Shown here piece by piece: positions 35,932 to 56,006 of a stretch of DNA of 64,000 bases (its first letter is position 1; each line of letters starts with the position of its first letter). Source of the DNA: a virus; the IMG/VR virus record IMGVR_UViG_3300016471_001132, positions 72,095 through 136,094 of that record; one strand, written 5' to 3'. The translations under genes and the position numbers were made by a program. Under the pieces are notes generated by a model. The model was not told the origin of the DNA. It saw only the letters and a program-made list of their open reading frames with translations, and ran no database searches.

Positions 35932-36044
35932 ATCTGCTCCTTTTTTAAACAATATACCTACATGATACAGAAATGGTAATTATTGGTCAATCTTGCTAGA
36001 TTAGTGCTTACTAACCAAAAATCAGTAGAAACCACGAGTGATGT

Positions 36045-36062
36045 TGCATTGCATGGTAAATA
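36045..36062 (+). promoter_or_regulatory. TGC-N3-GCA box plus late promoter TAAATA
   Basis: TGCATTGCA (36045-36053) then TAAATA (36057-36062). Confidence 0.55.
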
Positions 36063-36086
36063 CTGCTGATGACAAAGGAAAACAAT

Positions 36087-36227
36087 ATGAAACAAACCTG
36101 TAAAAAAATCTGGACATATCTCGTTTGCTTGGCTGAGAGTTTTGGTCACGCTCGTGCGGCCAGCGTTTTTGCCCGGCAAGGTCGCTACAAGATGGCCCAG
36201 CAAATCATGAATCAAAAATGTTCATGA
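36087..36227 (+). CDS. 46-aa protein (not in track)
   Basis: MKQTCKKIWTYLVCLAESFGHARAASVFARQGRYKMAQQIM; SD AAGGA. Confidence 0.7.
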   Translation: MKQTCKKIWTYLVCLAESFGHARAASVFARQGRYKMAQQIMNQKCS

Positions 36228-36355
36228 TGTTGAAATGGTTGGATGATTTACTGGGTCGTTGGACTCAGCATGAAATGGATCGTTGGTTTGATGGGATCAA
36301 TCCTGACTCTATCAAAGACATCGACAAATTTCTACGCTCAAAAGGATGGCAATGA
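36227..36355 (+). CDS. 42-aa protein, possibly DUF3563-like (not in track)
   Basis: MLKWLDDLLGRWTQHEMDRWFDGINPDSIKDIDKFLRSKGWQ; TGATG overlap. Confidence 0.6.
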   Translation: MLKWLDDLLGRWTQHEMDRWFDGINPDSIKDIDKFLRSKGWQ

Positions 36356-36423
36356 TGTATTGGTGGCCCGTAACAGACGAAGAGTGGGAACAGTTGAACT
36401 ATCCCAATCGCAAACCCAATTGA
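36355..36423 (+). CDS. 22-aa micropeptide (not in track)
   Basis: MYWWPVTDEEWEQLNYPNRKPN; TGATG overlap. Confidence 0.5.
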   Translation: MYWWPVTDEEWEQLNYPNRKPN

Positions 36424-36469
36424 TCTTCCGTTTGATTGACCACCCAGCCAGTGGCCAATAAATATCCAC

Positions 36470-37657
36470 ATGGATTGTAAGTTCAGCACCAATGGACTGG
36501 CTATTGATTATTTTGGCACAGTCAAGCCCTGTTGTCTATTCCAATACGATAAAAATTTCCAGGACCAAAACAACATCAAAGATCTGGATGTATCTGGCTG
36601 GCATAAATCTGAAAAAATCATCAGCATTACAAATTCTCTCGCCCAGAACCAGTGGCCAAAGGAATGCGGATTCTGCCAGCATACCGAGGCCAACGGCCGC
36701 GGCGACAGCATGCGATTAAACGGTCTCTCTTCGTATGGGCATTATTCATCTCAAGACATAACCTTGGAAATCCGGGGAGGATCCACATGCAACTTTGCAT
36801 GCCAGACATGTTGGCCGCAGGCAAGTTCGCGCGTGGCAAAATTTTATCAGCAAGCCAAAATCCAGTTTACTCCCCCAGATAACATGGATTGGGATTTCCA
36901 CCAACTGGATTCGGTCAAGCACAGGTTGAGGAATATAGTTTTACTCGGTGGAGAACCTTTCTATGACAAAAGATGTCTTGCGTTTCTAAAATGGTTGCTG
37001 ACAAATGATGTCCGTGCAGACATCACTGTCTTCACCAATGGATCAATGATCGATTGGCAATTTTTAGAAAGATTCAAAGGAAGAATCACATTGGTATTCA
37101 GCATTGATGCCATTGGCAAACCTGCAGAGTATATTAGATTTGGAAGTGATTGGAGCACAGTTAAAAAAAATTACGATTTGTGTCGCTCGCGGACCGAGGT
37201 CGCCACCAGGATAAACATAACTACCTCTCCTTACAATTACTTGTATCTCGAAGAGTTATTGAATTGGATCAGTCGAGATTGGCCGGAAGTGGTGTCATTT
37301 GGTCGTGCAGCAGAATCCAGAAACTCCATATACATGGACGAATCAATTTTCCGCGTCGAACAAAGAAGCGAAATCATCGAGAGTCTAATCCGGGCACAAT
37401 ATTTGTTGAAAGATAGCAAGATCGAAAGCATGCAAAAAATCAACGCTGCCAATGCGATTGGCAGTATCATCAAAAATCTGCGTCAGATGCCTTACAATGA
37501 CGCTAATCGTTTACAATTTGAAAAATTTATCGCTGACATGGACCTGATCAAAAAAATCAACATCAATGATTACTGTCCGGAGTTGGCCAGATATTTCGAC
37601 ATCAATCCAACCATATTGGACAAGGTCTCTTCTGAATTTTTTGAATCTGATATATAG
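36470..37657 (+). CDS. Radical SAM protein with N-terminal SPASM-like Cys cluster
   Basis: GTVKPCC, CGFC, CNFACQTC, GGEP, TNG; TAAATA 5 nt before ATG. Confidence 0.88.
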   Translation: MDCKFSTNGLAIDYFGTVKPCCLFQYDKNFQDQNNIKDLDVSGWHKSEKIISITNSLAQNQWPKECGFCQHTEANGRGDSMRLNGLSSYGHYSSQDITLEIRGGSTCNFACQTCWPQASSRVAKFYQQAKIQFTPPDNMDWDFHQLDSVKHRLRNIVLLGGEPFYDKRCLAFLKWLLTNDVRADITVFTNGSMIDWQFLERFKGRITLVFSIDAIGKPAEYIRFGSDWSTVKKNYDLCRSRTEVATRINITTSPYNYLYLEELLNWISRDWPEVVSFGRAAESRNSIYMDESIFRVEQRSEIIESLIRAQYLLKDSKIESMQKINAANAIGSIIKNLRQMPYNDANRLQFEKFIADMDLIKKININDYCPELARYFDINPTILDKVSSEFFESDI

Positions 37658-38754
37658 TTCAAAAGATTTGGGTCGTTCTTTGATATGAGTTTTTTGCTGA
37701 TGTCGCTGTCTAAGATTTGCTTGATCCCATCAGACTTGGACAATCTCAGAAATAACTTGAAAATTTCAATATCTCTCAAAGGCGTAAATGTCAACGTGTT
37801 GCCAAGATGCCAGTGTTGACAATCATTGGCGACAATATTGCACAAATAAGTCGCGAACTTCTCAAAACACATGCTATTCAATTCATCGTCTTTTTCTTGT
37901 TGCTCGAAAAGATTGATGTGTTTGTGCTGCAGGAAATAATCTCTGTGCAAGGTATTCGGATTTTTTTGTAGTTCATCTAGTATATTGGTGCCGTGATACT
38001 TTAACCATAGATTTGCTGTCACTGGACTTCTTAACATGAATTCATCTCCAGGAGCTCCGCTGGACAAGACACAGGGATCTGTCCAATGATGAATCTGACT
38101 GTATCCCCAAAAATTTTGTTTCAAGCGGCATTGGTTACGACACCAAAATTCATCCCACTCCACATGCTGTTGAAAAATCATTTGATATCGATCAGTGCTG
38201 GCCTTGATGTAACTGAAAACCAACATGCTATCAATGCCTCCAGAGCAAAAAACTTTTAGAGGTAATTGATTATGTTGCAGAAATGCTCGAGTGCGGCGCG
38301 TGAGAATATTATGTACTGTGTCAATGAGCTGATCGACTTGCAAAGTTTCTGTTTCGACCTTGCCAATGATGTCTATCTTACGCTCGGACATCTGTAAATC
38401 TTGATCTACACTTATGGTGCTGTCTGCCCATATTGTATATCCTTCTGGGAATAAATTAGACAATGACTTCTGGTCATGCCAAATTGTAAACCCTCTATAG
38501 AGATTGGTCTTGATCTCTATGTTTTTTGATACAATGTCATAATCAAAGATACAAAAATTTCCTGTATGTTCTTGATCCTTTATATAAGACAAACTGTCTT
38601 TGATGTACGAGTCATCTATGTAACCTTTATACACAAAGACATGCCCATCCTGTTCCAGTCTGTGCCAACCTGCATCGGTATTAAGGATGAGATTGCCCAA
38701 TGGATGATGATATGGGAATAACAGATTGGTCGACTTGGACAACGAAAAAAACAT
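37570..38754 (-). CDS. Asparagine synthetase-like ATP pyrophosphatase family protein
   Basis: FCSGGIDS, SGAPGDEFMLR. Confidence 0.7.
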   Translation of the reverse strand: MFFSLSKSTNLLFPYHHPLGNLILNTDAGWHRLEQDGHVFVYKGYIDDSYIKDSLSYIKDQEHTGNFCIFDYDIVSKNIEIKTNLYRGFTIWHDQKSLSNLFPEGYTIWADSTISVDQDLQMSERKIDIIGKVETETLQVDQLIDTVHNILTRRTRAFLQHNQLPLKVFCSGGIDSMLVFSYIKASTDRYQMIFQQHVEWDEFWCRNQCRLKQNFWGYSQIHHWTDPCVLSSGAPGDEFMLRSPVTANLWLKYHGTNILDELQKNPNTLHRDYFLQHKHINLFEQQEKDDELNSMCFEKFATYLCNIVANDCQHWHLGNTLTFTPLRDIEIFKLFLRLSKSDGIKQILDSDISKKLISKNDPNLLNYISDSKNSEETLSNMVGLMSKYLANSGQ

Positions 38755-39344
38755 TATTTGTCTCTTGACGATATTACCTGATCAGCCAGTCCATACTCCA
38801 CAGACTGTTGGGCAGTCATGAAGTTGTCTCGTTCCATGTCCGCTTTCAATTCTTCGTGTGTTTTGCCCGTGTGCCGCACATAGATATCAGTGAGCACTTG
38901 TTTCCACCGTAGCAATTCACGAGCTTGAATCTCAACATCAGTGGCCTGGCCTGACGCACCGCCTAGGGGTTGATGGATCATGTGCCTGGCATTGGGAAGT
39001 ATTTGACGATGCCCTTTTTCTCCTGCTGCCGCCAACAATGAGCCCATACTTGCTGCCTGGCCCATGACTATGGTATGCACTGGGCACTTGATGAATTGCA
39101 TGGTGTCGTAGATGCTCATACCAGCTGTGACGCTTCCACCTGGGCTGTTGATGTAAAAATGGATGGCTCGATCAGGATCTTCTGATTCTAAAAACAGCAT
39201 CTGCGCCACGACCAAACTGGCTGTGTGTTGATTGACTTCACCGTCCAGCATGATGATCCTGTCGCGTAGCAAACGACTGTAGATATCATAACTGCGTTCG
39301 CCCTTGGAAGTGTGTTCTAAAACGATTGGCACTAGATTTGGCAT
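38754..39344 (-). CDS. clpP: ATP-dependent Clp protease proteolytic subunit
   Basis: [37 protein letters not shown]. Confidence 0.97.
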
Positions 39345-40333
39345 TGTATTCCTTGTTGTACTTTGGTTTGTATTTGTTGCACATATCGATCAAACTGCTG
39401 TCTATTGTATTGTATCTTGGGTTGCAAGTCAACTAATTTCTTTTGGAAATAACTCACTGGTTGCCGGCATAAGATCTGCAAAAACGGAACCATGTTGTGA
39501 TAGGATGCGAGATCCAAATCTGTGATGTCTTGGAAGTCCAGCACATAAGTCTCGAATCCTCTCTGGGTCAACCAAGGTACAGCACCGTCTCGGGCATAGA
39601 CCAAGAATGGTCTCAAGCCCAAGATGGGCTTGTAGATCTTTTCGCTGACAAATCTAGTTTTGCGTAAATTGAACTGTGTTTCTGTGATCACGTCCAAGAA
39701 AATCCTGCGCCAGTTGTCAGGGTGGCCCAGACTCATGATGTCGTTGACGATACCAGTTTGCTCAATGCCGGGGTTGGGATTGAGATTGAGATCCGATACA
39801 CCTGTGTCCTGCGGTAACAATCTCTGCGCCGGTTCTCCGTCTTGTCTGGAACCCATGCTGACCAAACCTTGGTCCACGACTCCAGCTGCGACCATGGCAT
39901 CGTACAACTGTTGGCGATGGTGGTGAGGTTTTCTATTTAGGCACATAAACGGCGTATCTATGGCTGTGGCATCCGACAGATCGCCATGAGGTACCCTTAG
40001 CCATCGATCCACGGCCAAGGCCCAGAAATCTATTTCGTCCGGGCCAGCATAGTACCCCACGGATCTGATATCATCAGCAAATGGCTGGAATCGGTCGGCG
40101 TGGCAATTGGCTGCATCTATCATAGCCACGAGCACTATGCGATCAGGTCTGCTTGCTTCCAGGGCTTGCACAGTCTGTGCATGTGCCCAATCGCTGTACC
40201 AGGTGTTATTGACGATGACCGTAGAGGATGAATCCTCTGCGAAAGGGCGCAAATAAGCGGCCAGTATTTCGGCTTCGAACTTTTTTGTCTCTAATTCAGG
40301 ACCCCACCCATAATCATAAGTTTTTGTTATCAT
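39332..40333 (-). CDS. Putative glycosyltransferase-like protein (xEKxxKPI family)
   Basis: [31 protein letters not shown]. Confidence 0.55.
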
Positions 40334-41301
40334 CTGCGCCACTCTTTTATTTCTTCTAATATATTTCTATTGTATCGTGCGATTTCACTGGCTCTTTCCG
40401 ACATCGCTGGTTGTATGTCCTGCATGGTCTGCCACATGGCTCGCCAGCGATCTGGCCCTTCCAGGTTATCATAACTTTCGTCCCAATGATCACTGTAAGT
40501 TTTGAAACCATGGAGATCGCGCAATCTACTCAGGAAATTTTTTGGCCCATAGACCAATATGGGTTTTTCAGCCATGATGGGCCTGGCAGTTTTTTCGGTG
40601 GGGAAGAAAGAGTCCCCACGGGTGTAAGTTTCAGGAACTATCTCTATGCGGAACCGGGGATAGAAATCCAGTATGGTCTTGTTTGTCTCGGGCCGTTCAA
40701 CGAACCTACGATATTGGTCAGTGATCTTTTTGCCGTCCAAGCTGGCCAATCGTATATCGTGCCGCCACTGTAGGAAGCCCTGGATTTGATTTGGCGTGAC
40801 CCATTCACTGACTTCTTCTTGATCATATCGCTGGATACCCATGGAATTGTTCATCATACTGAATAAAAACCGGTGTGGTTGTTCCAAGCAATCCCGCAAT
40901 ATCATGTCTCGTGCCACTGTGCGACGACCGATAAACAGCCCAAATAGCCGAGCATCTGGGTGTAATGCTGGAGTATCGCGCCAGTAATCTCGCAGCAAAT
41001 CGCCCGACAAAAAATGGCTGCGAAATGGCTGATTGTGTTGTCTGGTGGCGTTGATGTTTTCAAATGGTGTGTGTTCTACCACATTGGGATTGTTGACCAG
41101 TTTTATGGAGCCTACTGACCTGCCTGTTTGATCACAGATGGCCAGTAATCTCTCAACGATGCCCGCAGCAGTGACACTGACACCCTCGGCTTGGAAATCA
41201 AGATAAATGTCTTCTGATATGTCTGCGCTCCGTACGAGATCTTCGACTTCCTGGGGGTTGGTCCAATAATCGCCAAATAGGGTTATGGGTATAGTCAACA
41301 T
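40330..41301 (-). CDS. Putative glycosyltransferase-like protein (xEKxxKPI family)
   Basis: IVPET, TEKTARPI, GFKTYSDHWDESYD; TAAGTA 6 nt before ATG. Confidence 0.55.
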   Translation of the reverse strand: MLTIPITLFGDYWTNPQEVEDLVRSADISEDIYLDFQAEGVSVTAAGIVERLLAICDQTGRSVGSIKLVNNPNVVEHTPFENINATRQHNQPFRSHFLSGDLLRDYWRDTPALHPDARLFGLFIGRRTVARDMILRDCLEQPHRFLFSMMNNSMGIQRYDQEEVSEWVTPNQIQGFLQWRHDIRLASLDGKKITDQYRRFVERPETNKTILDFYPRFRIEIVPETYTRGDSFFPTEKTARPIMAEKPILVYGPKNFLSRLRDLHGFKTYSDHWDESYDNLEGPDRWRAMWQTMQDIQPAMSERASEIARYNRNILEEIKEWRR

Positions 41302-41329
41302 ACCTTCTACTTACCGCGGTAAATACAGG

Positions 41330-42862
41330 ATGCGTGACATATTAGACAAACTCGACGGCATCACAGAAGCCACTCTGGAACCCAGCCAGATCATCAAATA
41401 CCCTGAACGATTTGATGCATTCATTTCACACATACAAGACCGACGCCCTTTTTACACTGACAAAGAAGGCACCGAAGTGATACTGGATCCCAGAGAAGCA
41501 GCACGATTCTTAGATCTCCGTGAAAAAGGTCTTTTCCGGGGCGGTCTCAAAGGTCGAGATCTCCAGGGGAACGAATGGCCACTTAGCAGTTTCCGCAAAA
41601 CAGCTGAATTCGGTGGTGCCAGCGCCAAGCCCGGTGAAGAAACTGATCCCACTAAAGTCAAAAAAGAAGGAGCTGCTCTCAAGCCGAGCCAGATAGCTAT
41701 CACTGATAAAAACATACCTATCAAAAGCCTGGGCAAACTCATAGTGCAAAATCCTGTATTAGAAAGCACCGATTACGGTCGTGCTGTGATTGAGATGGCA
41801 CAGCAGATCATGGCCGGGCAGGCTGCAGTGATCCCTGAAGAATTCCGCAAGAACGAGCAAATCAAAAAAGCCATCGTGGACTATGCAGGTGAATATCTAG
41901 GAGTGATGAGTCTGTACTATGACACTTCTGAGTGGTTAGGCAGTGGAGATAAAAAAGCTGGATTTACTCAGTGGTTGGGAGGCGACATTGGTAGTTTAAT
42001 AGTAAACTTTCCCAGCGAGTCTAATACTGCGCTGGCCGATAGCTTCGCTGAAATCAAAAATGCCAAAACTGGCCATACCGTGTCGATCTCAAGTAAAGGT
42101 ACCGGAGGAGGTGCACCACCAAGCATATCAAGCCTAAAAGTTCCAGAACATCTCAAAAGCAAACCCGAATACGAAACTGCCATCGACATCATAGAGCTTT
42201 GTAGCAACAAGTCGATCCCCAATCCTAAGACCATAAGCCAAGTATTTCTAATGATGAACCTGCTGCATGAACGCATCCCTAATAAGATACCCAAACAATT
42301 CAATAAATTCTTGCCATGGTCGCGCGATATCGTAGATCAGGTACAAAACAGTCTCAAGAACGGTACGGCCATGCCCAAATACCAAAGCCTCTTTGCTGAC
42401 CTTGACAGCAAAGGCAGCGACGGTGGCAAACTCACTTATGTGACCAAGACCGCAGTGATGAACATGGTCAACGGTGGTGAAGTTCCTGGATTCGAAGCAG
42501 TGGTCTTAGAGATACTAGATTATAACTTCATACAACAGTATGCCACTTATCAAGGCAACAAGACCGGAATAGTGGCTTTCAGCACACAGTGGCCAGCCAA
42601 GCTCGATGGTCGTGTGACCATGGAAAGCAAGAGCGGTGGCACCGATCCTACCAAAGGCGGGTTCAGTTTCAAGCTCAGCCCCAAGAATGCACCTATGCCC
42701 ACAGCGGACGAACTCATGGGCGACGATGAGAAACTAGACTTGCCCACTGCTAGTGCCGGGCCCGAAGGTGATCTGTCTGATTACGAGGCACCGAGACCAA
42801 CAATAAAAGCTCGTAGAGAGCCTCGGGGTGATGTTAGTGCCCTAGGACGCAAACGTCGTTAA
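41330..42862 (+). CDS. Late protein with putative PD-(D/E)xK nuclease-like core (510 aa)
   Basis: NTALADSF...VSISSKG; TAAATA 4 nt before ATG; N-terminus MRDILDKLDGITEA. Confidence 0.6.
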   Translation: MRDILDKLDGITEATLEPSQIIKYPERFDAFISHIQDRRPFYTDKEGTEVILDPREAARFLDLREKGLFRGGLKGRDLQGNEWPLSSFRKTAEFGGASAKPGEETDPTKVKKEGAALKPSQIAITDKNIPIKSLGKLIVQNPVLESTDYGRAVIEMAQQIMAGQAAVIPEEFRKNEQIKKAIVDYAGEYLGVMSLYYDTSEWLGSGDKKAGFTQWLGGDIGSLIVNFPSESNTALADSFAEIKNAKTGHTVSISSKGTGGGAPPSISSLKVPEHLKSKPEYETAIDIIELCSNKSIPNPKTISQVFLMMNLLHERIPNKIPKQFNKFLPWSRDIVDQVQNSLKNGTAMPKYQSLFADLDSKGSDGGKLTYVTKTAVMNMVNGGEVPGFEAVVLEILDYNFIQQYATYQGNKTGIVAFSTQWPAKLDGRVTMESKSGGTDPTKGGFSFKLSPKNAPMPTADELMGDDEKLDLPTASAGPEGDLSDYEAPRPTIKARREPRGDVSALGRKRR

Positions 42863-43434
42863 GCAAGGTCGGCCACTGCGTCGCAGATATTATACTGCAA
42901 CGCTTCATCTGCTGACAGATAAACATCCTGTGGTGGCAGCAATACCTTCTTGATAGTATCATCATCTAGCCCAGTAGTGATGCGATAGTGCTCGACCATG
43001 CGTTTTTCAATCAACTGGAACTCTTTAACAGTGGCAAATAATTCATGCGATTTGCCTTTGCTGCCCCACGAAAACTGGTGGCTTAGGATAGAAGTGTTGG
43101 GAGTGAGTATTCTACGACCCTGGGAACCTGTCAGGAAGATCAACAGTCCAGAACTGGCAATAGATCCCAATCCCACAGTCTTGATGGGTATCTTGCTGGA
43201 TCGCATGACATCAATCAGGGCAAACGCATCTTCAAGACTGCCGCCGTCACTGCAGATCATCAGCAGGAGTTCTTTGTATTTTTTCTTGCGTACATGATTT
43301 TCGTGCAGGATCCATTCGATCACGGGTTTCACAGAATCAGAATCAATGTCGTTCATGAGCACATAGATGCCATGGTCCAGCAGGGCCTCGCCTGGGGTAG
43401 CATATTCTATTGAGCTTTTGTCAGGTGTGTTCAT
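42859..43434 (-). CDS. Second ClpP-like protease
   Basis: ICSDGG, GSIASSG, ILSHQ, DVYLSADEAL; catalytic S/H/D positions retained. Confidence 0.85.
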   Translation of the reverse strand: MNTPDKSSIEYATPGEALLDHGIYVLMNDIDSDSVKPVIEWILHENHVRKKKYKELLLMICSDGGSLEDAFALIDVMRSSKIPIKTVGLGSIASSGLLIFLTGSQGRRILTPNTSILSHQFSWGSKGKSHELFATVKEFQLIEKRMVEHYRITTGLDDDTIKKVLLPPQDVYLSADEALQYNICDAVADLA

Positions 43435-43510
43435 AGGGCGATGAAGTGTTCGAGTAAAGTATGTAGATTATAAAGCACTTTTTGAAATGCTTCTACTACT
43501 TATCATGCCA

Positions 43511-44557
43511 TTATCTAGGGCATTGATTACCCGGAACCGCAGTGACTTCTGCCCGATCGATGTTTTGTATGGCCAGATTCTGTGTATTGACCAGCAAATT
43601 ATAGGTTTTCCTGTGACCAGGCAGCAATTTCACACGTCCACCGCCCACTTCTACATAGTACCAAGGAGCGTAGGAACTCTGGCTTATTTCTGGTAGATCA
43701 AAACAGTCGCGATACACAGCCCGACCCGCAGAATCCATCAAACTCATCATCAGCATGGGACGCACAGAGACCATGGCTTTGTCAAAAATCCAATAGGTAG
43801 TCTCGTCATCGAAATAGGCTTTTTCACTGCCTATCATGACTTCTAGCCTGGCACGGCAATTGGACAGCCAGCTGTTGCAATCCGGGCGTGGATTCACCGT
43901 CTTGACTGCTTCAGCCAAGCTGGCGGTAAACTTGGAATTCCATGCCACATGTACCGGGACCTGCAGGAAGACCACTCTGTTGTCGGCCAAGACCCGAGTC
44001 TGCCCCACCGAGATGTCAAACGCTCGAGCAGGAAAATCAGCCAACACCGCTGACAGCACACGATCTGCACCTTGTTTCTCTCTGTGGAAACTGTCGATCT
44101 GTGCGGATATCCTGCCACCTTCCACACGTCCAGCGTCACGACTCTCGCTTAACAGCCGATCTGCTATGCCAGATTTTCGCACCCACACATCGATGTCGAT
44201 TGAGACCCGCTGCCCATCATACTGGCGATCCACGATCTTGAAATCGTGTATGTGACCGGAACTGTAGTTGATGATCTCGTTACGGCGCACTTCACCATCT
44301 CTGACATTGGTATGGCTCAGTAGTAGGCTACCCACAGCCTGTTCCACTGCCAATCGGAAGGCTTGATCTCTGGCATCTTGCTCGTCTCGCCCCACTGCAC
44401 GGACCCGGACATGATAGACTTCTTCTCTGTCCATCATGACCCATTGGCCGATCTGCAAAACTATGGTCAACGGGCTGGGAGCCCAGAAGGACGGAGCAGC
44501 CTGCACAGGTGATGCCAGAAGACCAGCTATCACCAAGGCACACAAACCACGCTTCAT
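43511..44557 (-). CDS. Exported protein with LPP20-like N-terminal region
   Basis: Signal peptide; ARDQAFRLAVEQAVG. Confidence 0.65.
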   Translation of the reverse strand: MKRGLCALVIAGLLASPVQAAPSFWAPSPLTIVLQIGQWVMMDREEVYHVRVRAVGRDEQDARDQAFRLAVEQAVGSLLLSHTNVRDGEVRRNEIINYSSGHIHDFKIVDRQYDGQRVSIDIDVWVRKSGIADRLLSESRDAGRVEGGRISAQIDSFHREKQGADRVLSAVLADFPARAFDISVGQTRVLADNRVVFLQVPVHVAWNSKFTASLAEAVKTVNPRPDCNSWLSNCRARLEVMIGSEKAYFDDETTYWIFDKAMVSVRPMLMMSLMDSAGRAVYRDCFDLPEISQSSYAPWYYVEVGGGRVKLLPGHRKTYNLLVNTQNLAIQNIDRAEVTAVPGNQCPR

Positions 44558-45195
44558 CACTTCATCCGGTTGCGGATGAATTCAGCGGTGGCCTGGTCTT
44601 TCTCGCTCCATTGATACACTGCTACATACAACTTGCCGTCATCTCTGGTACCCTCACGGATTTTGCGTACACCAATGAGCCGACCCTGTGAAGTGATTGA
44701 CGTGATAGTGGTGATCACGGTATTGTCTACACGCTCTGCGATGCGCCTGCTGGTGTTGTCAGATGAGCCGCTGGCATCTTGGCTAAGTTCAGCTTCTGTG
44801 AAACTGATGGTACCATCGGCGGTCTTGAACTTGTTGAGAGTGTTGTCTTGGGCTTTTTCCAGGGCCTTGCCGATGATCTTGATCCGTCGTTCGGTCTTGG
44901 TATTGTCGCCATACAAGAACTGTGTGAGCTTGGCTTTGGCATCTAGTTCAGCCACCACAGCAAACTGCCCTTTCCAGGCCGGTGCCACGCCCGTGACTTC
45001 GATCCGATCCAGATTACCCATGAGGGTGTAATAGATTTTGACGCCGGCATCTTCAAATTCCGTGGCCACTCGCTGATCCTTGACGGGTGTGGTGGTGTCA
45101 CTAGGTGGTGTCATCCCAGTCTGGGTATTTTTATTGAACACACCACAACCCGTCAAGGCAGTGGTCAGAGCCAAACATACCAATGTCTTCTTCAT
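44557..45195 (-). CDS. Lipoprotein
   Basis: Lipobox LTGC. Confidence 0.8.
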   Translation of the reverse strand: MKKTLVCLALTTALTGCGVFNKNTQTGMTPPSDTTTPVKDQRVATEFEDAGVKIYYTLMGNLDRIEVTGVAPAWKGQFAVVAELDAKAKLTQFLYGDNTKTERRIKIIGKALEKAQDNTLNKFKTADGTISFTEAELSQDASGSSDNTSRRIAERVDNTVITTITSITSQGRLIGVRKIREGTRDDGKLYVAVYQWSEKDQATAEFIRNRMK

Positions 45196-45323
45196 TGTCT
45201 TCCCTTTCCGGCTATCATGCCGCCTACACTTTTGAGATCATCACCGGCACCCGATAGAGCACCGCCCAAGGTACCACAAGCCGTCAAGGCCATGGTGACC
45301 AGCAATACAGATAGATACTTCAT
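45192..45323 (-). CDS. 43-aa entericidin-like lipoprotein (not in track)
   Basis: MKYLSVLLVTMALTACGTLGGALSGAGDDLKSVG; lipobox LTAC; SD GGAGG; early promoter at 45353-45382. Confidence 0.7.
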   Translation of the reverse strand: MKYLSVLLVTMALTACGTLGGALSGAGDDLKSVGGMIAGKGRQ

Positions 45324-45386
45324 CGGGTCCTCCGACTTTTGAACATAGTGTAATATTAAAGGAAATGACTTTATTGGTCAACCAGC

Positions 45387-45797
45387 CTATCGCTGGGCAT
45401 TTTGGGCAGCATCGCCTATAGGATCAAATTGGACACCTTGTGCTACCAAATTCACAGCAGTGGAACCTATCACTTCGGCCGCTATTCGTCGGTCGCTTTT
45501 GGCTTCTCCACCACAGTTTTGGGCGATTCGTCTAGCGTCAAGATGATCTTTGGTTTCCATTCCGGCATTTCCAACCAAAACAGGAATTAGTAGTGTGCCG
45601 CCGCTGGCTATCACTGCCAATGGACTGGCGATCATACGCATCATTTTATAGTCGTCGTTGGGTTTGGCTTCCTTCACCGGAAGCTGACATTTCAGAGTGC
45701 GATAGTCATCATTGTGTTGCAGGCTTTGCGCGGTACGAGTGCTATGGCTAGCACAGCCGGTTAGAATCAAAAGAGGTAAAAGAAAAATCCCACGCAT
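45387..45797 (-). CDS. Lipoprotein (apparently leaderless)
   Basis: MRGIFLLPLLILTGC; promoter TTGACA-18-TATAAT at 45804-45833, ATG 6 nt downstream. Confidence 0.8.
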   Translation of the reverse strand: MRGIFLLPLLILTGCASHSTRTAQSLQHNDDYRTLKCQLPVKEAKPNDDYKMMRMIASPLAVIASGGTLLIPVLVGNAGMETKDHLDARRIAQNCGGEAKSDRRIAAEVIGSTAVNLVAQGVQFDPIGDAAQNAQR

Positions 45798-45840
45798 ACT
45801 GTAATTATAGTATGGGTGGGATTGGATTGTCAACCGCTAT

Positions 45841-46074
45841 TTAGATAGCGATGGCTTTGCGAACAGCTTCAGCGTAGGCCTTGACAGCGGCGTTTTGTGC
45901 CCGGGCGAACTCCATCGAAGCTTCAGCAACGGCTTCAGCAGCAGCTTTGGCTTTGGCATCGGTAATGTAACCGATGGCTGTTTTGGTGTTCTTTTCTACT
46001 TCGGCCAGCATTTTGTCGGCGTCGAAGAGTTTGGCAGCGTCAAATTTAGAAAAATCGATTTTGGTGAAGTCCAT
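45841..46074 (-). CDS. Phasin-like amphipathic helical protein (77 aa)
   Basis: Ala-rich amphipathic helices with no Trp/Cys; SD AAGGA; family call is inference. Confidence 0.5.
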   Translation of the reverse strand: MDFTKIDFSKFDAAKLFDADKMLAEVEKNTKTAIGYITDAKAKAAAEAVAEASMEFARAQNAAVKAYAEAVRKAIAI

Positions 46075-46080
46075 TTTAGT

Positions 46081-46132
46081 TTCCTTAGTTAAGCGAACTA
46101 CAGAATTGGATGCCCGCCCCATGCGGCACATC
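46081..46132 (-). promoter_or_regulatory. Bulged-G hairpin leader plus GCUUAAC-N-AAGGA motif
   Basis: GAUGU-G-CCGC-AUGGG-GCGG-GCAUC; same architecture as the hsp20 leader. Confidence 0.6.
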
Positions 46133-46149
46133 ATGTTCTGATTGTAACA

Positions 46150-46166
46150 TATATATTGCGTTGCAA
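46150..46166 (-). promoter_or_regulatory. TTGC-N3-GCAA box abutting a TATATA late-promoter variant
   Basis: Minus strand TTGTTGCAACGCAATATATA. Confidence 0.55.
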
Positions 46167-46243
46167 CAATAGTTATCTACGCATATTATTACCAAACCAT
46201 TGGATTTTGGCTAAGTAGTTTTACCAAAAACGGAGGAATCAAA

Positions 46244-46624
46244 ATGGCCTGGACCGCTACCCTAAACATCGTCAACGATACAGCATACAATCTCACAGTA
46301 AACCACAACACCGTGGGCGATCTCACTACCATCGCTCCCGGCGGCAACTGGAGCTACACCACATCTGATCCCAACAACACCAACGCTCTGCGTTTTTGGT
46401 CTGTGCCCAATCAGTGGTACATGCAGGGTTCAGTGGCCTATGGTCCATTGGCCGGTGTGTACATGGATCGTGGCTGGATGGCCCCAAACGATCAGACCAT
46501 CCGCTTGGATGCTGATGTCAACGGGACCACTTTCACTCAGACGGAGAACGGTGGTGCAACGGTGGTGCCTTGGAACGGATTCGAATCCGGTGGCACCATC
46601 GACATGAAGTTTTCCAAGATTTGA
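46244..46624 (+). CDS. All-beta 126-aa protein, possibly aegerolysin/lectin-like
   Basis: SD GGAGG; TAAGTA upstream; IVNDTAYNL...IAPGG pattern. Confidence 0.7.
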   Translation: MAWTATLNIVNDTAYNLTVNHNTVGDLTTIAPGGNWSYTTSDPNNTNALRFWSVPNQWYMQGSVAYGPLAGVYMDRGWMAPNDQTIRLDADVNGTTFTQTENGGATVVPWNGFESGGTIDMKFSKI

Positions 46625-46640
46625 CGGTAAATACTAGACT

Positions 46641-46988
46641 ATGAACATCCGCGAAGTCTTAGACAAGTTGGACGAAATTAGCCGTAGAGATTTCCTCAAA
46701 GGTGCTGGTGCGGCAGCAGCTGGTGCTGCTCTATCTTCGATGCCGAAAAGAGCTCAAGCCATGACTTCGGCAAATTGTCAACCTCCCAGTATCCAGGACC
46801 AGATACGCAATGCCGTGCGATCGGGTGCAGTACCTCAAGGTAATCGTTATTCGGCTCAGGTCAGAGCCGGATGGGTTTATGTTGTCTATGTCGACAATAA
46901 AACCTATGACATCAGTCACCAGATTCCTCAATGCGGCAAACAAACCATGAAGGCCGCGGAGGAAATAGGCAGACTGATGGGTAATTAA
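46641..46988 (+). CDS. Late protein with twin-arginine signal
   Basis: SRRDFLKG, hydrophobic stretch, AQA; TAAATA 7 nt before ATG. Confidence 0.8.
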   Translation: MNIREVLDKLDEISRRDFLKGAGAAAAGAALSSMPKRAQAMTSANCQPPSIQDQIRNAVRSGAVPQGNRYSAQVRAGWVYVVYVDNKTYDISHQIPQCGKQTMKAAEEIGRLMGN

Positions 46989-47692
46989 ACCGTCCGGACC
47001 TGGGCCAAGCCTAGTTCTTCCAGCCTGCGAATGTAGAAGTAGCCTAGATCAAACTCCCACCACTTTTGACTGAGTTTCGCACTGGCTGGATCGTCGTGAT
47101 GGTTGTTGTGTAATTCTTCACCACCGATGATGATGCCCCAAGGAAAAATGTTGCGGCTACAATCCTTGGTGTTGGTGTTGCGATAGCCCCACCAGTGTCC
47201 CACACCATTGACCACACCTGCGGCCCAGAATGGAATCCAAGCCATCTGCACCAACCACATGACCAGTCCCCAGCCATTGAACAGAGCCACTTGGATGATC
47301 AACAAAGACAAGTATCCCATGTTGGGATAACGGCTATAGACATTACGCTCTATCCAGTCATCGGGCGTGCCTTTGCCGTACTGCTCGATCATCTTCTTAT
47401 TGCGTGTAGCGTTGGCATATAACCAAGCACCAGCGAACAACACTTTGAGGATACCATGCACCTGTGGGCTGTGTGGATCTTGTCGTGTTTCGCAGGCCTG
47501 ATGATGCTTGCGATGTATGGCCACCCATTCTTTGGTGACCATTCCAGTAGTGAGCCATAACCAGAAACGCATAAAGTGACTGATTGCAGGATGAAGTTCC
47601 ACTGCTCGGTGTGCTTGGCTCCTGTGTAGGAAAATGGTTACACTTGCGATAGTGATGTGTGTCATCACTAATACGATTACTAATTCTAACAT
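46985..47692 (-). CDS. Membrane fatty-acid (delta-9-like) desaturase
   Basis: His boxes HRSQAH, HRKHH, ELHNNHH; GHWWG; WWEFDLG. Confidence 0.93.
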
Positions 47693-47832
47693 GTTTTACT
47701 CCTTTGGCAGCGTTGGCTGCAGTATTTCACTTGAGGCCAGTCTCTCGACCACTTACGCCTCCAAGTGAATGGTCTCCCGCACGTTTCACATGTTTTGGTA
47801 GGGAGACTCTTTTTATTCCCTGGCCAGGTCAT
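47686..47832 (-). CDS. DUF2256-like zinc-finger protein
   Basis: [16 protein letters not shown]...VKYCSQRC. Confidence 0.85.
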
Positions 47833-48461
47833 ACTCCTGCGGCCAACACTATTTTGCAGATATGTTCCAATCGCTCGATGTGTTCGAATGCACGCCAAGG
47901 CGACGTGTCTATGGCCACTACTCCGTGGCCTTTGATGCCGATGATGTCGGCAGCGGTGAATCCGTGTGAGTTTAACCCAAAACTCTCAAAGCTCCTGTCA
48001 GCTAACTCTTGGCTTATGGGAGGTACCTCTCCTACGTTGGGGCCTACTCGGGTATACCTACTGAGTTCAGGAAAATCGTGGGCCAGTTCGGCTAACTCAA
48101 TACCACGATGCATGGCAGCTACACAGTATGTGGGATGCAGGTGAACCACCACACGCACATCTTCAGCATGTTGTCCCATACGGCGTTGCAGTCCAAAGTG
48201 CAAAGGTATTTCGCCCGAGGGCCGAAGTTCTGCACTGATTGCGGTATAGCTCATCTCCTGCCATAAGGGTACAGGACCATCAATAATTTTTATCTTCTTG
48301 AACTGATCGGGTTGCAGAGTCTGTTTGCGTACCCCTGATGGTGTGATGTAGAAGTGATCGCGATCGTGATGACGGATCGAAACATTACCATCGCGGCTGG
48401 TGATCCAGTTTCGACGATAGCCTTCTATCAAGGTTTCACAAATGGTCTCAAGCACGGCCAA
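47829..48461 (-). CDS. Class II aldolase/adducin family protein
   Basis: [30 protein letters not shown]. Confidence 0.92.
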
Positions 48462-49665
48462 TCTCCTCTGCTATGATCTCTGCGGTACCAGCGCCCAAGG
48501 TCCAGCCCAAGTGTCCATGGCCAGTGTTGAGCCAAACACCATCTCTGCGGCCTGGCTTGATAAGGGGCATCATGCTGGGTGTCATGGGACGGAGTCCTGC
48601 CCAGGGACGGCAATCTTCAGTGCTGACACCAGGAAGATTCCGTTCCGTCCAACGCAAGAGTGGATCAATCCTGTCTCGGCGTATGTCCAAGTTCCAGTCA
48701 TCCAGTTCTGCTGTGCCTGCTACTCGCAGTCTGTTGCCCAGGGTCGATGTCACAATCTTAGCAGCATCGTCTAACAGGCTTGTCACAGGTAAGCAAGAGG
48801 GATCCTGTACCTGTAGTGTGATAGAGTAGCCCTTGACTGGGTATACAGGGATGCTCTCACCAAACATCTTTCCAGTTTCCGCAGCACGGCTGCCGGCACA
48901 TATCACCACATCTGTGTACTCATACCAGTCAGTGATGTAATCACTTTGGATATGCACGCTCCACTTGTTGGGCAAGCGCCGGGCTTCTTTCACACTGGCA
49001 CGGTAGCGGAATCGGACTCCGCGGTCTCCTAACCAGCGTGCCAGATTGGCTGTGAACTTGTGTATGTCACCCATGCCATCTGTGGCAGTATAGGTTCCGC
49101 CGATGATGGTGGAGTCTTGTTTCAGTGCTGGTTCGGCATCAAACACACCATCTCGATCCAGGATCTCTCGATGCACACCGGCCATCTCGTACAAATAGCA
49201 GGATCGTTTGGCTGATTCAAAATAGTTGGCATCACGATAGATGTGCAGGATGCCAGTTTGGCTGTGATCAAACTTGATGCCAGTGGCCTTCATGATGTCA
49301 GCATATGCTTCGCGACTCCCTAGTCCCAGTTCGATGGTTTTAAGTGTGTTGGTTTCATATCGACCCATCACGGTGTTGGCCATGAATCCGGCTATCCATT
49401 TCAACTTGGGCAGGCTGGGATAAGGACGGAACAACAGTGGGGCATCTTTCTGCCACATCCATCGGAAACCTTTTTTGACATTCGCCCAAGTGGTCCAAAC
49501 TTCGCTGTTTGAAACACTAAGTTGTCCACCATTGGCATAACTGGTCATCATGCCAGCATAGCGTTCGGCTTCTATCACTGTGACATCATAGCCTCGCTTG
49601 TAGAGACTGTAGGCTGTGGTTACGCCGGTGATGCCGGCTCCAATTACTAGTATCTTTTTAGTCAT
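48448..49665 (-). CDS. dadA: D-amino acid dehydrogenase
   Basis: GAGITGVTTAY, TSYANGGQLS, PVKGYSIT, RVAGTAE, WAGLRPMTP, NTGHGHLGWT. Confidence 0.92.
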   Translation of the reverse strand: MTKKILVIGAGITGVTTAYSLYKRGYDVTVIEAERYAGMMTSYANGGQLSVSNSEVWTTWANVKKGFRWMWQKDAPLLFRPYPSLPKLKWIAGFMANTVMGRYETNTLKTIELGLGSREAYADIMKATGIKFDHSQTGILHIYRDANYFESAKRSCYLYEMAGVHREILDRDGVFDAEPALKQDSTIIGGTYTATDGMGDIHKFTANLARWLGDRGVRFRYRASVKEARRLPNKWSVHIQSDYITDWYEYTDVVICAGSRAAETGKMFGESIPVYPVKGYSITLQVQDPSCLPVTSLLDDAAKIVTSTLGNRLRVAGTAELDDWNLDIRRDRIDPLLRWTERNLPGVSTEDCRPWAGLRPMTPSMMPLIKPGRRDGVWLNTGHGHLGWTLGAGTAEIIAEEIGRA

Positions 49666-49834
49666 AATCAGATGATAGCATGACTGCGATCAACCCGCAA
49701 CCTATGGCTATTGCTCCAAGATTAGTATATATGGGATTGTAGTTTAAACATCTCATAGCCGTTTCCACGCAGAGATATTCGCCTGCCAGCAGCAGGATTC
49801 CAAACAATATGGTCAGGAACCCTGCGTACCTCAA
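49658..49834 (-). CDS. 58-aa two-TM protein (not in track)
   Basis: TTG start overlapping the aceA stop: [20 protein letters not shown]...[14 protein letters not shown]. Confidence 0.55.
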
Positions 49835-51114
49835 TGGAACTGTTCTTCTTCGGTGCTACCTTTGAGAGCCTGTGTGGAGGCGTTGGCTTCGATGGTAGTT
49901 GTGACAGCATCAAAGTAGCCGGTACCAACTTCACGCTGGTGCTTGACTGCTTCAAAACCTCTGCTGGCGTCTGCGAATTCACGCTGTTGCAGATTCACGA
50001 ATGCTGTCATGCCTTCTCTGGCGTATCCGTGTGCGAGGTCGAACATGCCGTGATTGAGTTGATGGAAACCAGCTAGAGTGATGAACTGGAACCGGTAGCC
50101 CATGGCACCCAGTTCTCTTTGGAAGCGGGCGATTTCATCATCGTTGAGATTCTTCTTCCAGTTGAAGCTGGGGCTGCAATTGTAGGCCAGCATCTTGCCC
50201 GGGAACTGTTGATGGATGCCTTCGGCAAACTTGCGAGCAAACTCCATGTCAGGCACACCAGTCTCGCACCAGAGTAGGTCGGCATAGGGTGCGTAGGCCA
50301 AGCCACGTGCTAGGGCTTGGTCGAAGCCTTTGCGGGTGCGGTAGAATCCTTCAACAGTGCGTTCGCCTGTGAGGAAGGGTCGGTCGCGATCATCAATGTC
50401 TGATGTAACCAGGTCGGCTGCTTCTGCATCAGTTCTAGCAAGCAATACAGTAGGAACGCCAAGCACGTCAGCAGCAAGACGAGCAGCAGTGAGTTTGTTG
50501 ATGGCTTCTTGAGTTGGTACAAGTACTTTTCCTCCCATGTGTCCGCATTTTTTCACGGACGCTAATTGATCTTCGAAGTGTACGCCCGATGCGCCGGCTT
50601 CGATCATGGCCTTCATGAGTTCAAATGCATTGAGCACTCCACCAAATCCGGCTTCGGCATCGGCCACGATGGGCGCGAAGAAGTCGGTGTCACCGTGGCC
50701 TTCCATCCACTGGATCTGGTCCGCACGTGTGAAGGTGTTGTTGATTTTTTTCACCACTGCCGGCACCGAGTCCACGGGATACAGGCTTTGGTCGGGATAC
50801 ATCTCGCCGGCTGAATTGGCATCACCGGCCACTTGCCAACCGCTCATGTATATGGCCTTGAGTCCGGCCTTGACCTGTTGCAGAGCCTGCATGCCAGTCA
50901 TGGCACCCAATGTATTCACATAGTCTTCAGTCTGCAGCAGTTTCCACAGTTTCTCAGCCCCACGGCGAGCCAGGCTGTGTTCCACAGGATTGCTGCCTTG
51001 CAGTCTGACCACCTGGTCGGCTGTGTATTCTCGTTTGATGCCATTCCACCGGGGATTGGTGCTCCAGTCCTGCTGGATCTGATAGGCTTTCCAACTGCGG
51101 GTTTTTTCACTCAT
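49831..51114 (-). CDS. aceA: Isocitrate lyase
   Basis: [46 protein letters not shown]; start moved to MSEKT (SD GGAG). Confidence 0.98.
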
Positions 51115-51136
51115 CTTGCTCTCCATGTTTGTCAGG

Positions 51137-51156
51137 TATTTATTGCGATGCAATAA
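51137..51156 (-). promoter_or_regulatory. Inverted repeat TTATTGC-N3-GCAATAA overlapping late promoter TAAATA
   Basis: Plus strand 51140-51156 TTATTGC GAT GCAATAA; TAAATA at 51137-51142. Confidence 0.6.
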
Positions 51157-51217
51157 TCACAAAATCTATCATTATTTACAGCCAGATTAAATACACCTAC
51201 ATTTTAAGGAGATCCAG

Positions 51218-51487
51218 ATGGAACTGTATATCGCTATTGCTGTTGTCTTAGTCGTTGGTGGCTATTTTATCTATAAGCGTGCTGACAAAAATAAAGACGG
51301 CAAGGTCGACGCTGTAGAAGCCAAGGCTGCTGTAGAAGAAGTCAAAGTAGTGGTTCAGGAAGCCAAGACACAGGTCAAGAAAGCCGCTGTCAAAGCCAAG
51401 GCCAACATGGGCGCCAAGACTCGCGCCGCTGTCAACAAAGCCACTACCAAAAAGCCGACTGCTAAGAAACCTGCCGCTAAGAAGTAA
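51218..51487 (+). CDS. Membrane-anchored protein with EF-hand-like loop and Lys/Ala tail
   Basis: N-terminal TM segment, DKNKDGKVD, KKPAAKK; TAAATA and AAGGAG. Confidence 0.75.
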   Translation: MELYIAIAVVLVVGGYFIYKRADKNKDGKVDAVEAKAAVEEVKVVVQEAKTQVKKAAVKAKANMGAKTRAAVNKATTKKPTAKKPAAKK

Positions 51488-51773
51488 GCAATCTAGCGAA
51501 GCCAACTGTGTCAATGGCAGTCAATGCCATGTAGTTGGCCAGCATGCCAAAACTGCCTCGGGTCCAAGCGGCCCAGGCATAGATGGCACTACCTGTGATA
51601 GTCATGCTTAAGAACAGGAAAAAAGGTACATCGGGCACAGTCAATGCAAAAAGTACCGCTGCGCCGATACTGAGTGCCCAAGCCACTACCTCCAACCAAA
51701 ATCTCAACTGCCAGCTTTGATAGTCACGCTGGATGAACTGCCATGTGGCCTGTATGTTGTCTCGGGTGATCAT
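51477..51773 (-). CDS. Small multi-pass membrane protein
   Basis: Three hydrophobic segments. Confidence 0.75.
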   Translation of the reverse strand: MITRDNIQATWQFIQRDYQSWQLRFWLEVVAWALSIGAAVLFALTVPDVPFFLFLSMTITGSAIYAWAAWTRGSFGMLANYMALTAIDTVGFARLLTS

Positions 51774-52792
51774 AGCACATGCTGTGCTGCGAAAGCATGG
51801 CTGGCCAAGTTCTTGCCTTTGCTTTCACACTGGATGTCCCAGTCTGTACTGAATCCAGCTGCCCAGTCGTTTACTGCAGAATTCCAGTAGAAGTCCGAAT
51901 GAGCCCGTAGTTGCTGTTTACGATAGCCGCGTCTAAGTAGGTCTGCAAGATCTGGACGATCTCCGGTAGGATGATCCACAAGAATATCTTCGCGGCTAAC
52001 ACTAAAATGGCAAGTAGGACGCACACCACGCCAAGACTCAATAACCCGCTGCGCACGATGGTCCGTCGGGTCAATATATTCTCCGGTGTTGATCCAGTGG
52101 TGATGTATGTCCAACACAAGAGCCACGTGATCAGCCACAGCAAGAGTAACATCCAAACCATTTGATATCTCGTCGTTTTCTATAGAAATTAGGTTGCGTG
52201 CTTCAGGAGATAATCTTCCAAGGGTATTTATAAACTTGGAAGGCCCACCTTTGCCAGAAAGATGGACATTGATCTTGAATCCGTGATCATGCCAAGATGC
52301 ACCATATCCCATCCACCGTGCCATGTCAGCATGATACTCAAATTCCAATATCGACCGTTCGACAATTTCATCACTGGCGCTGGCCAGCACACAGAACTGC
52401 CCAGGGTGGAAGCTCAATCGCACATCTAATTCTCTAGCACGCTGACCGATGGGTGCGAAAATCGTCTCCAAGTGCCGTTGCACATCGGCTTGTTGCCACC
52501 AGTCGATCCAGTTGGGTTCGGTATAGCCTTGGAGCATTTCACTGCCCAGGCGCACCATGCGTAGTTCGGGACGCAGGCTGCCCACACGCTCGACCATGCG
52601 CAAGGCAGCGGCAGCATTGTGGTTCATGATGTCCCACTGACGCTGTTCGGCTTCTTCGGGATGTTCTCTCAGCCAGCGCATGGTGGTGCTACGGCCGTTG
52701 AGATCACGGCTTTCAGCAGTGGGCTTGCGCCCAGCGCACTCGTTAGGATGGTCAATCCATTTGCAGCAAAAACCAATGCGGGGTGTAGTCAT
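51770..52792 (-). CDS. uvsE: UV-damage endonuclease
   Basis: RLSFHPGQF, INVH, IEND, VLDIHHH, HSD, ESKGKNLA. Confidence 0.92.
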   Translation of the reverse strand: MTTPRIGFCCKWIDHPNECAGRKPTAESRDLNGRSTTMRWLREHPEEAEQRQWDIMNHNAAAALRMVERVGSLRPELRMVRLGSEMLQGYTEPNWIDWWQQADVQRHLETIFAPIGQRARELDVRLSFHPGQFCVLASASDEIVERSILEFEYHADMARWMGYGASWHDHGFKINVHLSGKGGPSKFINTLGRLSPEARNLISIENDEISNGLDVTLAVADHVALVLDIHHHWINTGEYIDPTDHRAQRVIESWRGVRPTCHFSVSREDILVDHPTGDRPDLADLLRRGYRKQQLRAHSDFYWNSAVNDWAAGFSTDWDIQCESKGKNLASHAFAAQHVL

Positions 52793-55468: not shown

Positions 55469-56006
55469 CGGGGATGCCTGTTATTTGTAGAGTATATCGA
55501 TCAGTCTTTCCAACATTGGCCGCCAGATGAGGAGTGGAGCCTTGCCAGATCACGCAATCTCCGGCTTGCCACTTGATAACGGGCGATCTATCGATCTCAA
55601 AATAGTGCCCGCTTTGCCAATCCTCGAGGAATACCACTGCACGATAGATGGACTCTATGTCAGTGACCTGATGGAGTTCTGCGAATTTAGAATAGGTGTC
55701 ACGATGTTCTGGCAAGACTCTGCCCGGAGCCATGCGATAAACAGACCAGGAAAAATGCCGCCAAGGAAAATGATCACGGAACGGTTCGATCCATGGCGGT
55801 CGAGTGTTTCTCATATCGTACATGTCGCCGGTGAACTTGGTTTGTGTGTAACCCAAATCTCGCCATTCTTTCAGCGCCAGTTCATCATTGAACGGTTCAT
55901 TGACATAGGGAAGATCTCGGTGGGTGGACCACCACGGCTCGACCCGGGCGTGTTTCCAAGATTTATCCTTTGCGTGTGTTGCCATAATGTATGACAATGA
56001 TGCCAT
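55449..56006 (-). CDS. 2OG-Fe(II) oxygenase / cupin-like hydroxylase (start uncertain)
   Basis: LPEHRD (HxD), WQSGHYF, PHLAAN, RYTLQITG. Confidence 0.75.
   Translation of the reverse strand: MASLSYIMATHAKDKSWKHARVEPWWSTHRDLPYVNEPFNDELALKEWRDLGYTQTKFTGDMYDMRNTRPPWIEPFRDHFPWRHFSWSVYRMAPGRVLPEHRDTYSKFAELHQVTDIESIYRAVVFLEDWQSGHYFEIDRSPVIKWQAGDCVIWQGSTPHLAANVGKTDRYTLQITGIPDENPLV

Follow-up and report, generated by a model that had tools for sequence, protein, structure and literature searches.

Boxes resembling PhaR operators in a clade of uncultured freshwater phages: a candidate regulon linked to host carbon storage

The polyhydroxybutyrate (PHB)-responsive repressor PhaR, also named PhbF or AniA, and the phasin genes form a circuit described in Ralstonia eutropha, Herbaspirillum seropedicae, Bradyrhizobium diazoefficiens and Sinorhizobium meliloti, in which PHB granules titrate PhaR (PMC12849132, PMC12542648). 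The Herbaspirillum PhaR, PhbF, protects TG[N]TGC[N]3GCAA within a footprint of 24 bp (PMC3206438); the PhaR motif is YTKNTGCRNYGCANMAR in R. eutropha (PMC12849132) and TGCRNYGCASMA in B. diazoefficiens (PMC6201568), and in S. meliloti PhaR represses a protein of the isocitrate lyase family (PMC12542648). Here we describe three boxes of this kind in a 64 kb stretch of DNA (the window), which is the right-hand part of one 136,094 bp virus record of IMG/VR (IMGVR_UViG_3300016471_001132). They stand before the isocitrate lyase gene aceA, before a gene encoding a 77-aa protein (p77) and before an operon of micro-open reading frames (micro-ORFs), and they may serve as operators for the PhaR repressor of the host. 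As in the bacterial circuit, the box has the form TG-N-TGC-RNY-GCAA and overlaps the core promoter, and small amphipathic helical proteins and an enzyme of the glyoxylate shunt are among its targets. The phage arrangement differs in that (i) the putative operators lie on a phage genome without a phaR of its own; (ii) the phage promoters carry a single box, whereas bacterial ones usually carry a pair; (iii) two of the three boxes are joined to a TAAATA hexamer and not to a sigma-70 promoter; and (iv) the targets are phage-only proteins and a captured aceA.

Both phage isocitrate lyase genes and the control of phage auxiliary genes by a host regulator are already known. The control of cyanophage pstS and phoA by host PhoBR was reportedly described by Zeng and Chisholm in 2012. 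It is exerted via pho boxes (PMC10976474). As in our case, a site for a host nutrient regulator precedes an auxiliary metabolic gene of a lytic phage, so that the gene follows host physiology. In the system proposed here, however, a carbon-storage polymer would be read through repressor titration and not through a two-component response to phosphate; host group and target genes are different too, and the system is known from sequence alone. Huge phages, some of them from freshwater, carry genes for isocitrate lyase and malate synthase, and the passages retrieved from that report describe the presence of the genes and not their regulation (bioRxiv 10.1101/2025.02.27.640493). The present locus is another phage-borne isocitrate lyase in large uncultured phages, including freshwater ones; in the DNA examined here, though, the neighbours linked with aceA encode an aldolase and a desaturase-like protein and not malate synthase. 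T4-type late promoters (TATAAATA, gp55/gp33) resemble the promoters of the window in having a lone AT-rich −10-like element, here TAAATA, shortly before many phage genes and without a −35 element. To our knowledge, no operator has been described for T4 late promoters, whereas two of the TAAATA hexamers in the window have an operator-like box next to them. A literature search for a phage regulon tied to PhaR or PHB found none, in agreement with the preliminary description of this DNA, whose author knew of no such regulon.

A check of coordinates located all three boxes of the preliminary description. Box 1, TGTTGCATTGCAT, occupies positions 36042–36054 on the plus strand, with TAAATA (36057–36062, +) 2 nt 3′ of it; the whole site reads TGTTGCATTGCA-tgg-TAAATA (36042–36062, +). 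Box 2, TGTTGCAACGCAA (46156–46168, −), belongs to the site TGTTGCAACGCA-A-TATATA (46168–46150, −) before the 77-aa gene. Box 3, TATTGCATCGCAA (51143–51155, −), abuts directly the TAAATA hexamer of the aceA operon (51137–51142, −), giving TATTGCATCGCA-A-TAAATA (51155–51137, −). The TGC-N3-GCA core is present in all three sites, and the central triplets (ATT, AAC and ATC) are all R-N-Y. With respect to the flanks of the PhbF motif, TG-N before TGC and A after GCA, box 2 is perfect and boxes 1 and 3 have one mismatch each; the left half-site of box 1 is good and its right flank is poor.

The sites were scored with a matrix built from 62 boxes located 5′ of true Phasin_2 genes in 35 Burkholderiales promoters; genome G036 was excluded from all analyses. 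Burkholderiales promoters were gathered because the phage aceA is closest to the enzymes of this order, being 76–79% identical to those of Rubrivivax, Inhella, Caldimonas and Polaromonas. When only the non-core positions of the matrix were used, the three sites ranked first, second and third among the 53 TGC-N3-GCA cores of the 136 kb genome, with flank-only scores of 8.6, 7.6 and −0.7 (−1.9 for the next-best core). On the full matrix, box 2 reached 20.6 bits and box 3 reached 19.5 bits, and simulated genomes yield 0.05 sites of 19 bits or more. Among the 56 sites of the genome with no more than one mismatch to TG-N-TGC-N3-GCAA, exactly these three have TA[AT]ATA within 12 nt downstream; by our own estimate about 0.2 such pairings are expected by chance. 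Thus, the three boxes are real and beyond chance. The genome-wide count of TTGC-N3-GCAW, through which enrichment was to be sought according to the preliminary description, revealed 13 matches against 8.0 ± 3.3 expected, which by itself is no enrichment.

The window box fits all three published PhaR motifs, from H. seropedicae, R. eutropha and B. diazoefficiens. An unbiased dyad count in the 35 Burkholderiales phasin promoters gave TGC-N3-GCA as the top dyad (62 observed vs. 7.9 expected); it occurs in 34 of the 35, and the boxes are mostly paired, one on each side of the promoter. In the matrix of 62 sites, T at position −3 has a frequency of 0.91, and the R and Y of the centre have 0.97 and 0.97. 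The assignment of the box to the PhaR type, first made in the preliminary description, is borne out at the sequence level by both the published motifs and the boxes extracted from phasin promoters. To judge from these matches, the window boxes have PhaR-operator specificity, and as a putative cis-element the box is well supported.

Among bacterial aceA promoters the box is over-represented as well: 18% of them score at least 15 bits against 0.9% of in-gene controls, and in Undibacterium and relatives the PhaR-like box of the aceA promoter overlaps the −35 element. The box thus suggests that aceA is a member of the PhaR regulon in many Burkholderiales. It should be mentioned that many Burkholderiales aceA promoters (L084–L134) also contain a strongly conserved palindrome, GTCTTATATAAGAC, at about −150 to −60 from the start and often right beside the PhaR-like box. 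It is absent from the phage aceA promoters and is probably the site of a second aceA regulator in Burkholderiales.

Orthologous phage promoters keep the box. At least 11 distinct phage aceA promoters have TTGC-N3-GCAA 1–7 nt before TAAATA, with variable central triplet and flanks, and six phages keep TGTTGC-N3-GCAA, with a varying centre, 5′ of the 77-aa gene or of the gene that has taken its position. In five relatives of ~90–130 kb, intergenic perfect boxes occur only before aceA and the 77-aa-type gene, and in two large relatives the strict R. eutropha pattern is limited to one aceA box and one site inside aceA. We also scanned IMG/VR with the composite pattern TGTTGC-N3-GCAA-N0-3-TAAATA, in which the central triplet was left free, and at least 117 stretches matched. 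Among the matches listed, the first ORF behind the box belonged in 32 of 63 cases, from at least seven diverged sequence contexts, to a family of micro-proteins of ~50–57 aa (family A), which is the commonest box-headed gene family in these phages; seven ORFs, together with two related ones carrying double boxes, belonged to a family of helical proteins of 72–104 aa (family B), and two were aceA. In the same set the R-N-Y centre was found at all 35 non-redundant sites before recurrent targets, against 25% by chance, and at only 15 of the 35 remaining composite matches. The shared-box regulon suggested by the preliminary description is thus wider than was seen there and extends clade-wide in IMG/VR (family A, p77-like proteins and aceA).

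Since the same box occurs in some bacterial aceA promoters, it could have come along when aceA was captured and persist as a non-functional relic of the host promoter; alternatively, the likeness could be accidental. Both possibilities appear very improbable, since in many lineages the box also precedes phage-only genes (p77 and family A), it has been preserved next to diverging flanks and around a diverging central triplet, and the chance expectation is far surpassed.

Intergenic DNA is enriched for TAAATA(C), which is found 10–30 nt 5′ of many start codons, so that a phage-specific, late-type promoter class is a fair reading of this hexamer. The preliminary description had placed all three boxes against promoters of this type. 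For TAAATA this is plausible, while the 77-aa gene probably has a sigma-70-type promoter, in which the TATATA hexamer is part of the spacer: a −10-like TACAAT (46141–46146, −), conserved in relatives as TACAAT or TATAAT (TAAACT in L185), follows TTGCAN by 17 bp. The box accordingly overlaps the promoter in either of two ways, lying 0–3 nt before TAAATA or, at the 77-aa gene, across the −35 element and spacer. The constant joining of the box to a −10-like hexamer at a fixed short distance, together with the −35-like TTGCAN located 17 bp from TACAAT, would also suit an element that marks promoters of their own temporal class, for example a surrogate −35 or an activator site like the MotA box, rather than a sensor of physiology. 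We find this improbable. A temporal class should number more than two or three such promoters per roughly 100–130 kb; conservation extends to both half-sites, of which a −35 element requires just one; and the same box before bacterial phasin genes is a repressor site.

Regarding the protein that could bind the box, the aceA donor lineage, and therefore the host, is likely to be Burkholderiales. Genomes of this lineage contained exactly one PhaR in five out of five cases and phasins in five out of five. If the host is indeed of this lineage, these genomes agree, as far as PhaR and phasins go, with the expectation that it has PhaR and polyhydroxyalkanoate. No PHB_acc_N (PhaR) domain was found in the 136 kb contig, nor in a 91%-complete relative of 316 kb that keeps the aceA box. 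Host PhaR as the binder would be the simplest reading of these data. A different binder is conceivable, namely a dimeric regulator encoded by the phage clade itself, the likeness to PhaR sites being either convergent or a deliberate copy competing with PhaR. Phage contigs carry the box widely and in association with phage-only families, two or three promoters per genome are typical of a dedicated phage regulator, and the contig is just 39% complete. However, the box-keeping relative lacks any PhaR-like DNA-binding domain despite its completeness, and the agreement with PhaR sites includes the R-N-Y centre and the T at −3, positions that a generic palindrome does not need. The small phage proteins at hand also look unsuited: family A micro-proteins are acidic by residue count and are therefore unlikely DNA binders, p77 is neutral, and orf126, divergent from the 77-aa gene, was rejected as a divergent regulator on composition, because its translation has much Asn, Thr and Gly and few basic residues; no solved homologue of it was found. 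We therefore give the phage-encoded regulator a minor, though real, share of the probability.

It seems rather probable that a clade of uncultured freshwater phages has recruited the boxes as operators for the host PHB-responsive repressor PhaR. Several observations weigh against this. The CheckV completeness of the contig is ~39%, which leaves room for a phage-encoded regulator in this particular genome. A very large number of IMG/VR contigs have the box, and PhaR is not universal among bacteria; none of the cultured phages searched for the 77-aa protein carries one, and the phage has no cultured relative. A site centred near −20 on a −35-independent promoter is without a tested PhaR precedent. 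Box 1, with 11.3 bits on the full matrix, is within the noise range. Finally, ~8 aceA promoters in relatives have a diverged TGCTG-N4-GCCA at the box position that scores 3–7 bits and is off the PhaR matrix. In this group (L013–L016, L023, L034 and L058) the element is separated from TAAATA by 1 nt, and it could represent either a box in decay or the site of a different host regulator.

If PhaR is the binder, the following mechanism can be hypothesized. An oligomer of PhaR on TG-N-TGC-RNY-GCAA, 0–3 nt 5′ of the phage TAAATA at the aceA and micro-ORF operons, would block RNA polymerase; at the 77-aa gene it would do so by covering the −35 element and spacer of the TTGCAN-17-TACAAT promoter. The 24 bp PhbF footprint implies that bound PhaR would cover the hexamer, and as such a footprint would reach the opening bases of TAAATA or span the −35 element and spacer, free PhaR would repress. 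PHB granules growing in the infected cell would then sequester PhaR and switch on three phage modules: (i) isocitrate lyase with an oxidoreductase and an aldolase; (ii) the small amphipathic helical protein, perhaps acting at the granule surface; and (iii) micro-proteins linked to a radical SAM enzyme. It is plausible that acetyl-coenzyme A from PHB would thereby enter the glyoxylate shunt. The sign of regulation, the binding of PhaR, the dependence on PHB and the role of p77 are all inferred. We would give roughly even chances to the full proposal, that uncultured freshwater phages of a widespread clade with many huge members read PHB status via host PhaR to gate a fixed three-module programme, in which the small helical proteins would be phasin-like granule proteins. 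Of the PHB-tapping regulon outlined in the preliminary description, the boxes, their conservation and their identity with PhaR sites stand, and the phasin identity and the late-type hexamer at the 77-aa gene found little or no support.

If true, this would be the first virus found to read a bacterial carbon-storage organelle through a titratable repressor, and the box-headed phage genes would be on only in hosts carrying PHB. Auxiliary metabolic genes of phages are usually catalogued without expression timing, and a conserved operator offers a testable rule, which here ties viral reprogramming of the glyoxylate shunt to the storage polymer of abundant freshwater Betaproteobacteria. The box may also serve as a marker for predicting PhaR-bearing hosts of uncultured phages, and it flags two phage-only families of small proteins as candidates for granule association or for a place in the PhaR circuit.

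The protein encoded behind box 2, p77 (45841–46074, −), is an amphipathic helical-hairpin protein of a phage-only family whose phasin likeness is unproven. The family comprises at least 48 small unannotated proteins, and a protein atlas shows it in viruses only. AlphaFold2 models p77 as a helical hairpin (predicted local distance difference test score 84), and its long helix is moderately amphipathic (hydrophobic moment 0.36, p 0.009 vs. shuffles), a trait that is not specific to phasins. The preliminary description had called the protein phasin-like, and the searches did not confirm this: none of 31 family members matched Pfam above the gathering score; hhalign gave a probability of 0.3% for the family against Burkholderiales Phasin_2-type phasins (A1 vs. 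A2; 0.35% for A5 vs. A2); Foldseek found no match to the model in PDB at E ≤ 0.001; and an exhaustive profile search with the family retrieved nothing but small proteins without annotation and a few repeat proteins. Certain hints remain. Phasin_2 appeared below threshold in four relatives and was the top Pfam match in three of them, the best being L261 with 23.0 bits against a cut-off of 24.9 (E 0.014–0.11 for the others). In the language-model comparison, the nearest named protein-atlas clusters were Phasin_2, PHB_acc and PHA_synth_III_E, with scores of 0.79–0.85, a range that can serve as a lead only. A phasin-like function of p77 therefore appears somewhat doubtful to us, being a little less than an even prospect. 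The related idea that p77 mimics the C-terminal domain of PhaR, raised by the protein-atlas lead, was not supported, since hhalign of the family against PhaR gave 0.2%.

The leader of the p77 gene (46075–46140, −) contains a conserved hairpin in the 5′-untranslated region, GCCGC-loop-GCGGG (46110–46129, −), with a compensatory change in L185, followed by TCGCTTA and the ribosome-binding site. Six phages retain both the hairpin and the invariant TCGCTTA, also in cases where another coding gene has been swapped in; an Rfam search of the leader gave no matches. In relative G006 the positional replacement of p77 is a family B gene with the same promoter and the same hairpin, and profile alignment of the p77 family with family B gave E 0.002 at a probability of 13%. 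The divergent orf126 (46244–46624, +) is 88–91% identical across relatives, in contrast to only 50–80% for neighbouring genes; rich in Asn, Thr, Gly and Trp, it matched no family and no solved homologue.

The identification of the gene behind box 3 as isocitrate lyase in the preliminary description was correct: aceA (49831–51114, −; 427 aa) matches PF00463 at 2e-108 and has the catalytic motif KKCGH at residues 188–192. Downstream in the operon are a flavin adenine dinucleotide-dependent oxidoreductase of the DAO family (48448–49665, −) and a class II aldolase (47829–48461, −), which overlaps the end of the DAO gene and is syntenic with aceA in many relatives. The gene for a fatty-acid-desaturase-like protein (46985–47692, −) keeps its synteny with aceA and the aldolase gene in relatives, and its co-transcription with the operon is uncertain because a 136 nt gap precedes it. 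In this gap we noticed a short Cys-rich, zinc-ribbon-like ORF (CETCG...YCSQRC; 47700–47810, −). The gene order aceA, aldolase, desaturase, orf126 and 77-aa gene recurs in many IMG/VR contigs. In a relative of 223 kb (L248; G052:C1:14920–14934) a second site of the strict PhaR pattern, TGATGCGGCGCACCA, is located ~360 nt inside the aceA coding region; comparable intragenic sites for PhaR have been reported from the phaP genes of R. eutropha. Divergently from the box-bearing aceA promoter, a small membrane-anchored EF-hand-like protein with a DKNKDGKVD loop is encoded (51218–51487, +) with its own TAAATA at 51188; this gene lies opposite aceA in the window and in G007, and opposite the family B gene in G006 (also L183 and L187).

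The operon behind box 1 consists of micro-ORF1 (36087–36227, +; 46 aa, 'ARAAS' type), micro-ORF2 (36218–36355, +; 45 aa) and micro-ORF3 (36352–36423, +; 23 aa), followed by a gene for a radical SAM/SPASM protein (36470–37657, +; phrog_14086, 1e-22) with its own TAAATA at 36459. Micro-ORF3 could not be assigned to a family. A hidden Markov model of family A built without the window ranked micro-ORF2 best of 719 window ORFs (E 0.004), making it a distant member of this family; a homologue of micro-ORF1 stands directly behind a composite box in L294 (E 4e-4), and the radical SAM protein matches a box-headed radical SAM gene directly behind a composite box in L291 (E 2e-11). Because micro-ORF1, micro-ORF2 and the radical SAM protein match box-headed genes, we assign site 1 to the putative clade-wide box set, into which it is rescued by the conserved association of its targets. 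The claim that this operon shares the box has thus held for its targets, whose homologues are box-linked in other phages, while by sequence alone the site is a weak match. Among radical SAM orthologues at ≤50% identity, none had a box within 700 nt upstream.

The arrangement of three micro-ORFs directly 5′ of a radical SAM/SPASM enzyme (36087–37657, +) resembles the precursor-plus-maturase layout of ribosomally synthesized and post-translationally modified peptides. In a 349 kb contig (L190), homologues of micro-ORF1 and micro-ORF2 are likewise found 5′ of a radical SAM gene. The C-termini of family A are rich in aromatic residues (e.g., ..YTYQNHKNW..). A link of the micro-proteins to DUF3563 can be regarded as a lead only, with weak matches in two of 22 members and a PhaR-like box at one of three bacterial DUF3563 genes.

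Other features of the genome should be mentioned briefly. The phage contig has a G+C content of 48.8%, which is even along its whole length. The radical SAM gene is convergent with a minus-strand ORF (37570–38754) without family match; both encode ~395 aa and they overlap by ~90 nt. Around the putative regulon, the window also contains, in the order reported, a twin-arginine (Tat) signal protein (46641–46988, +), a UvdE ultraviolet endonuclease (51770–52792, −) and a uridine diphosphate-glucose dehydrogenase (55963–57204, −).

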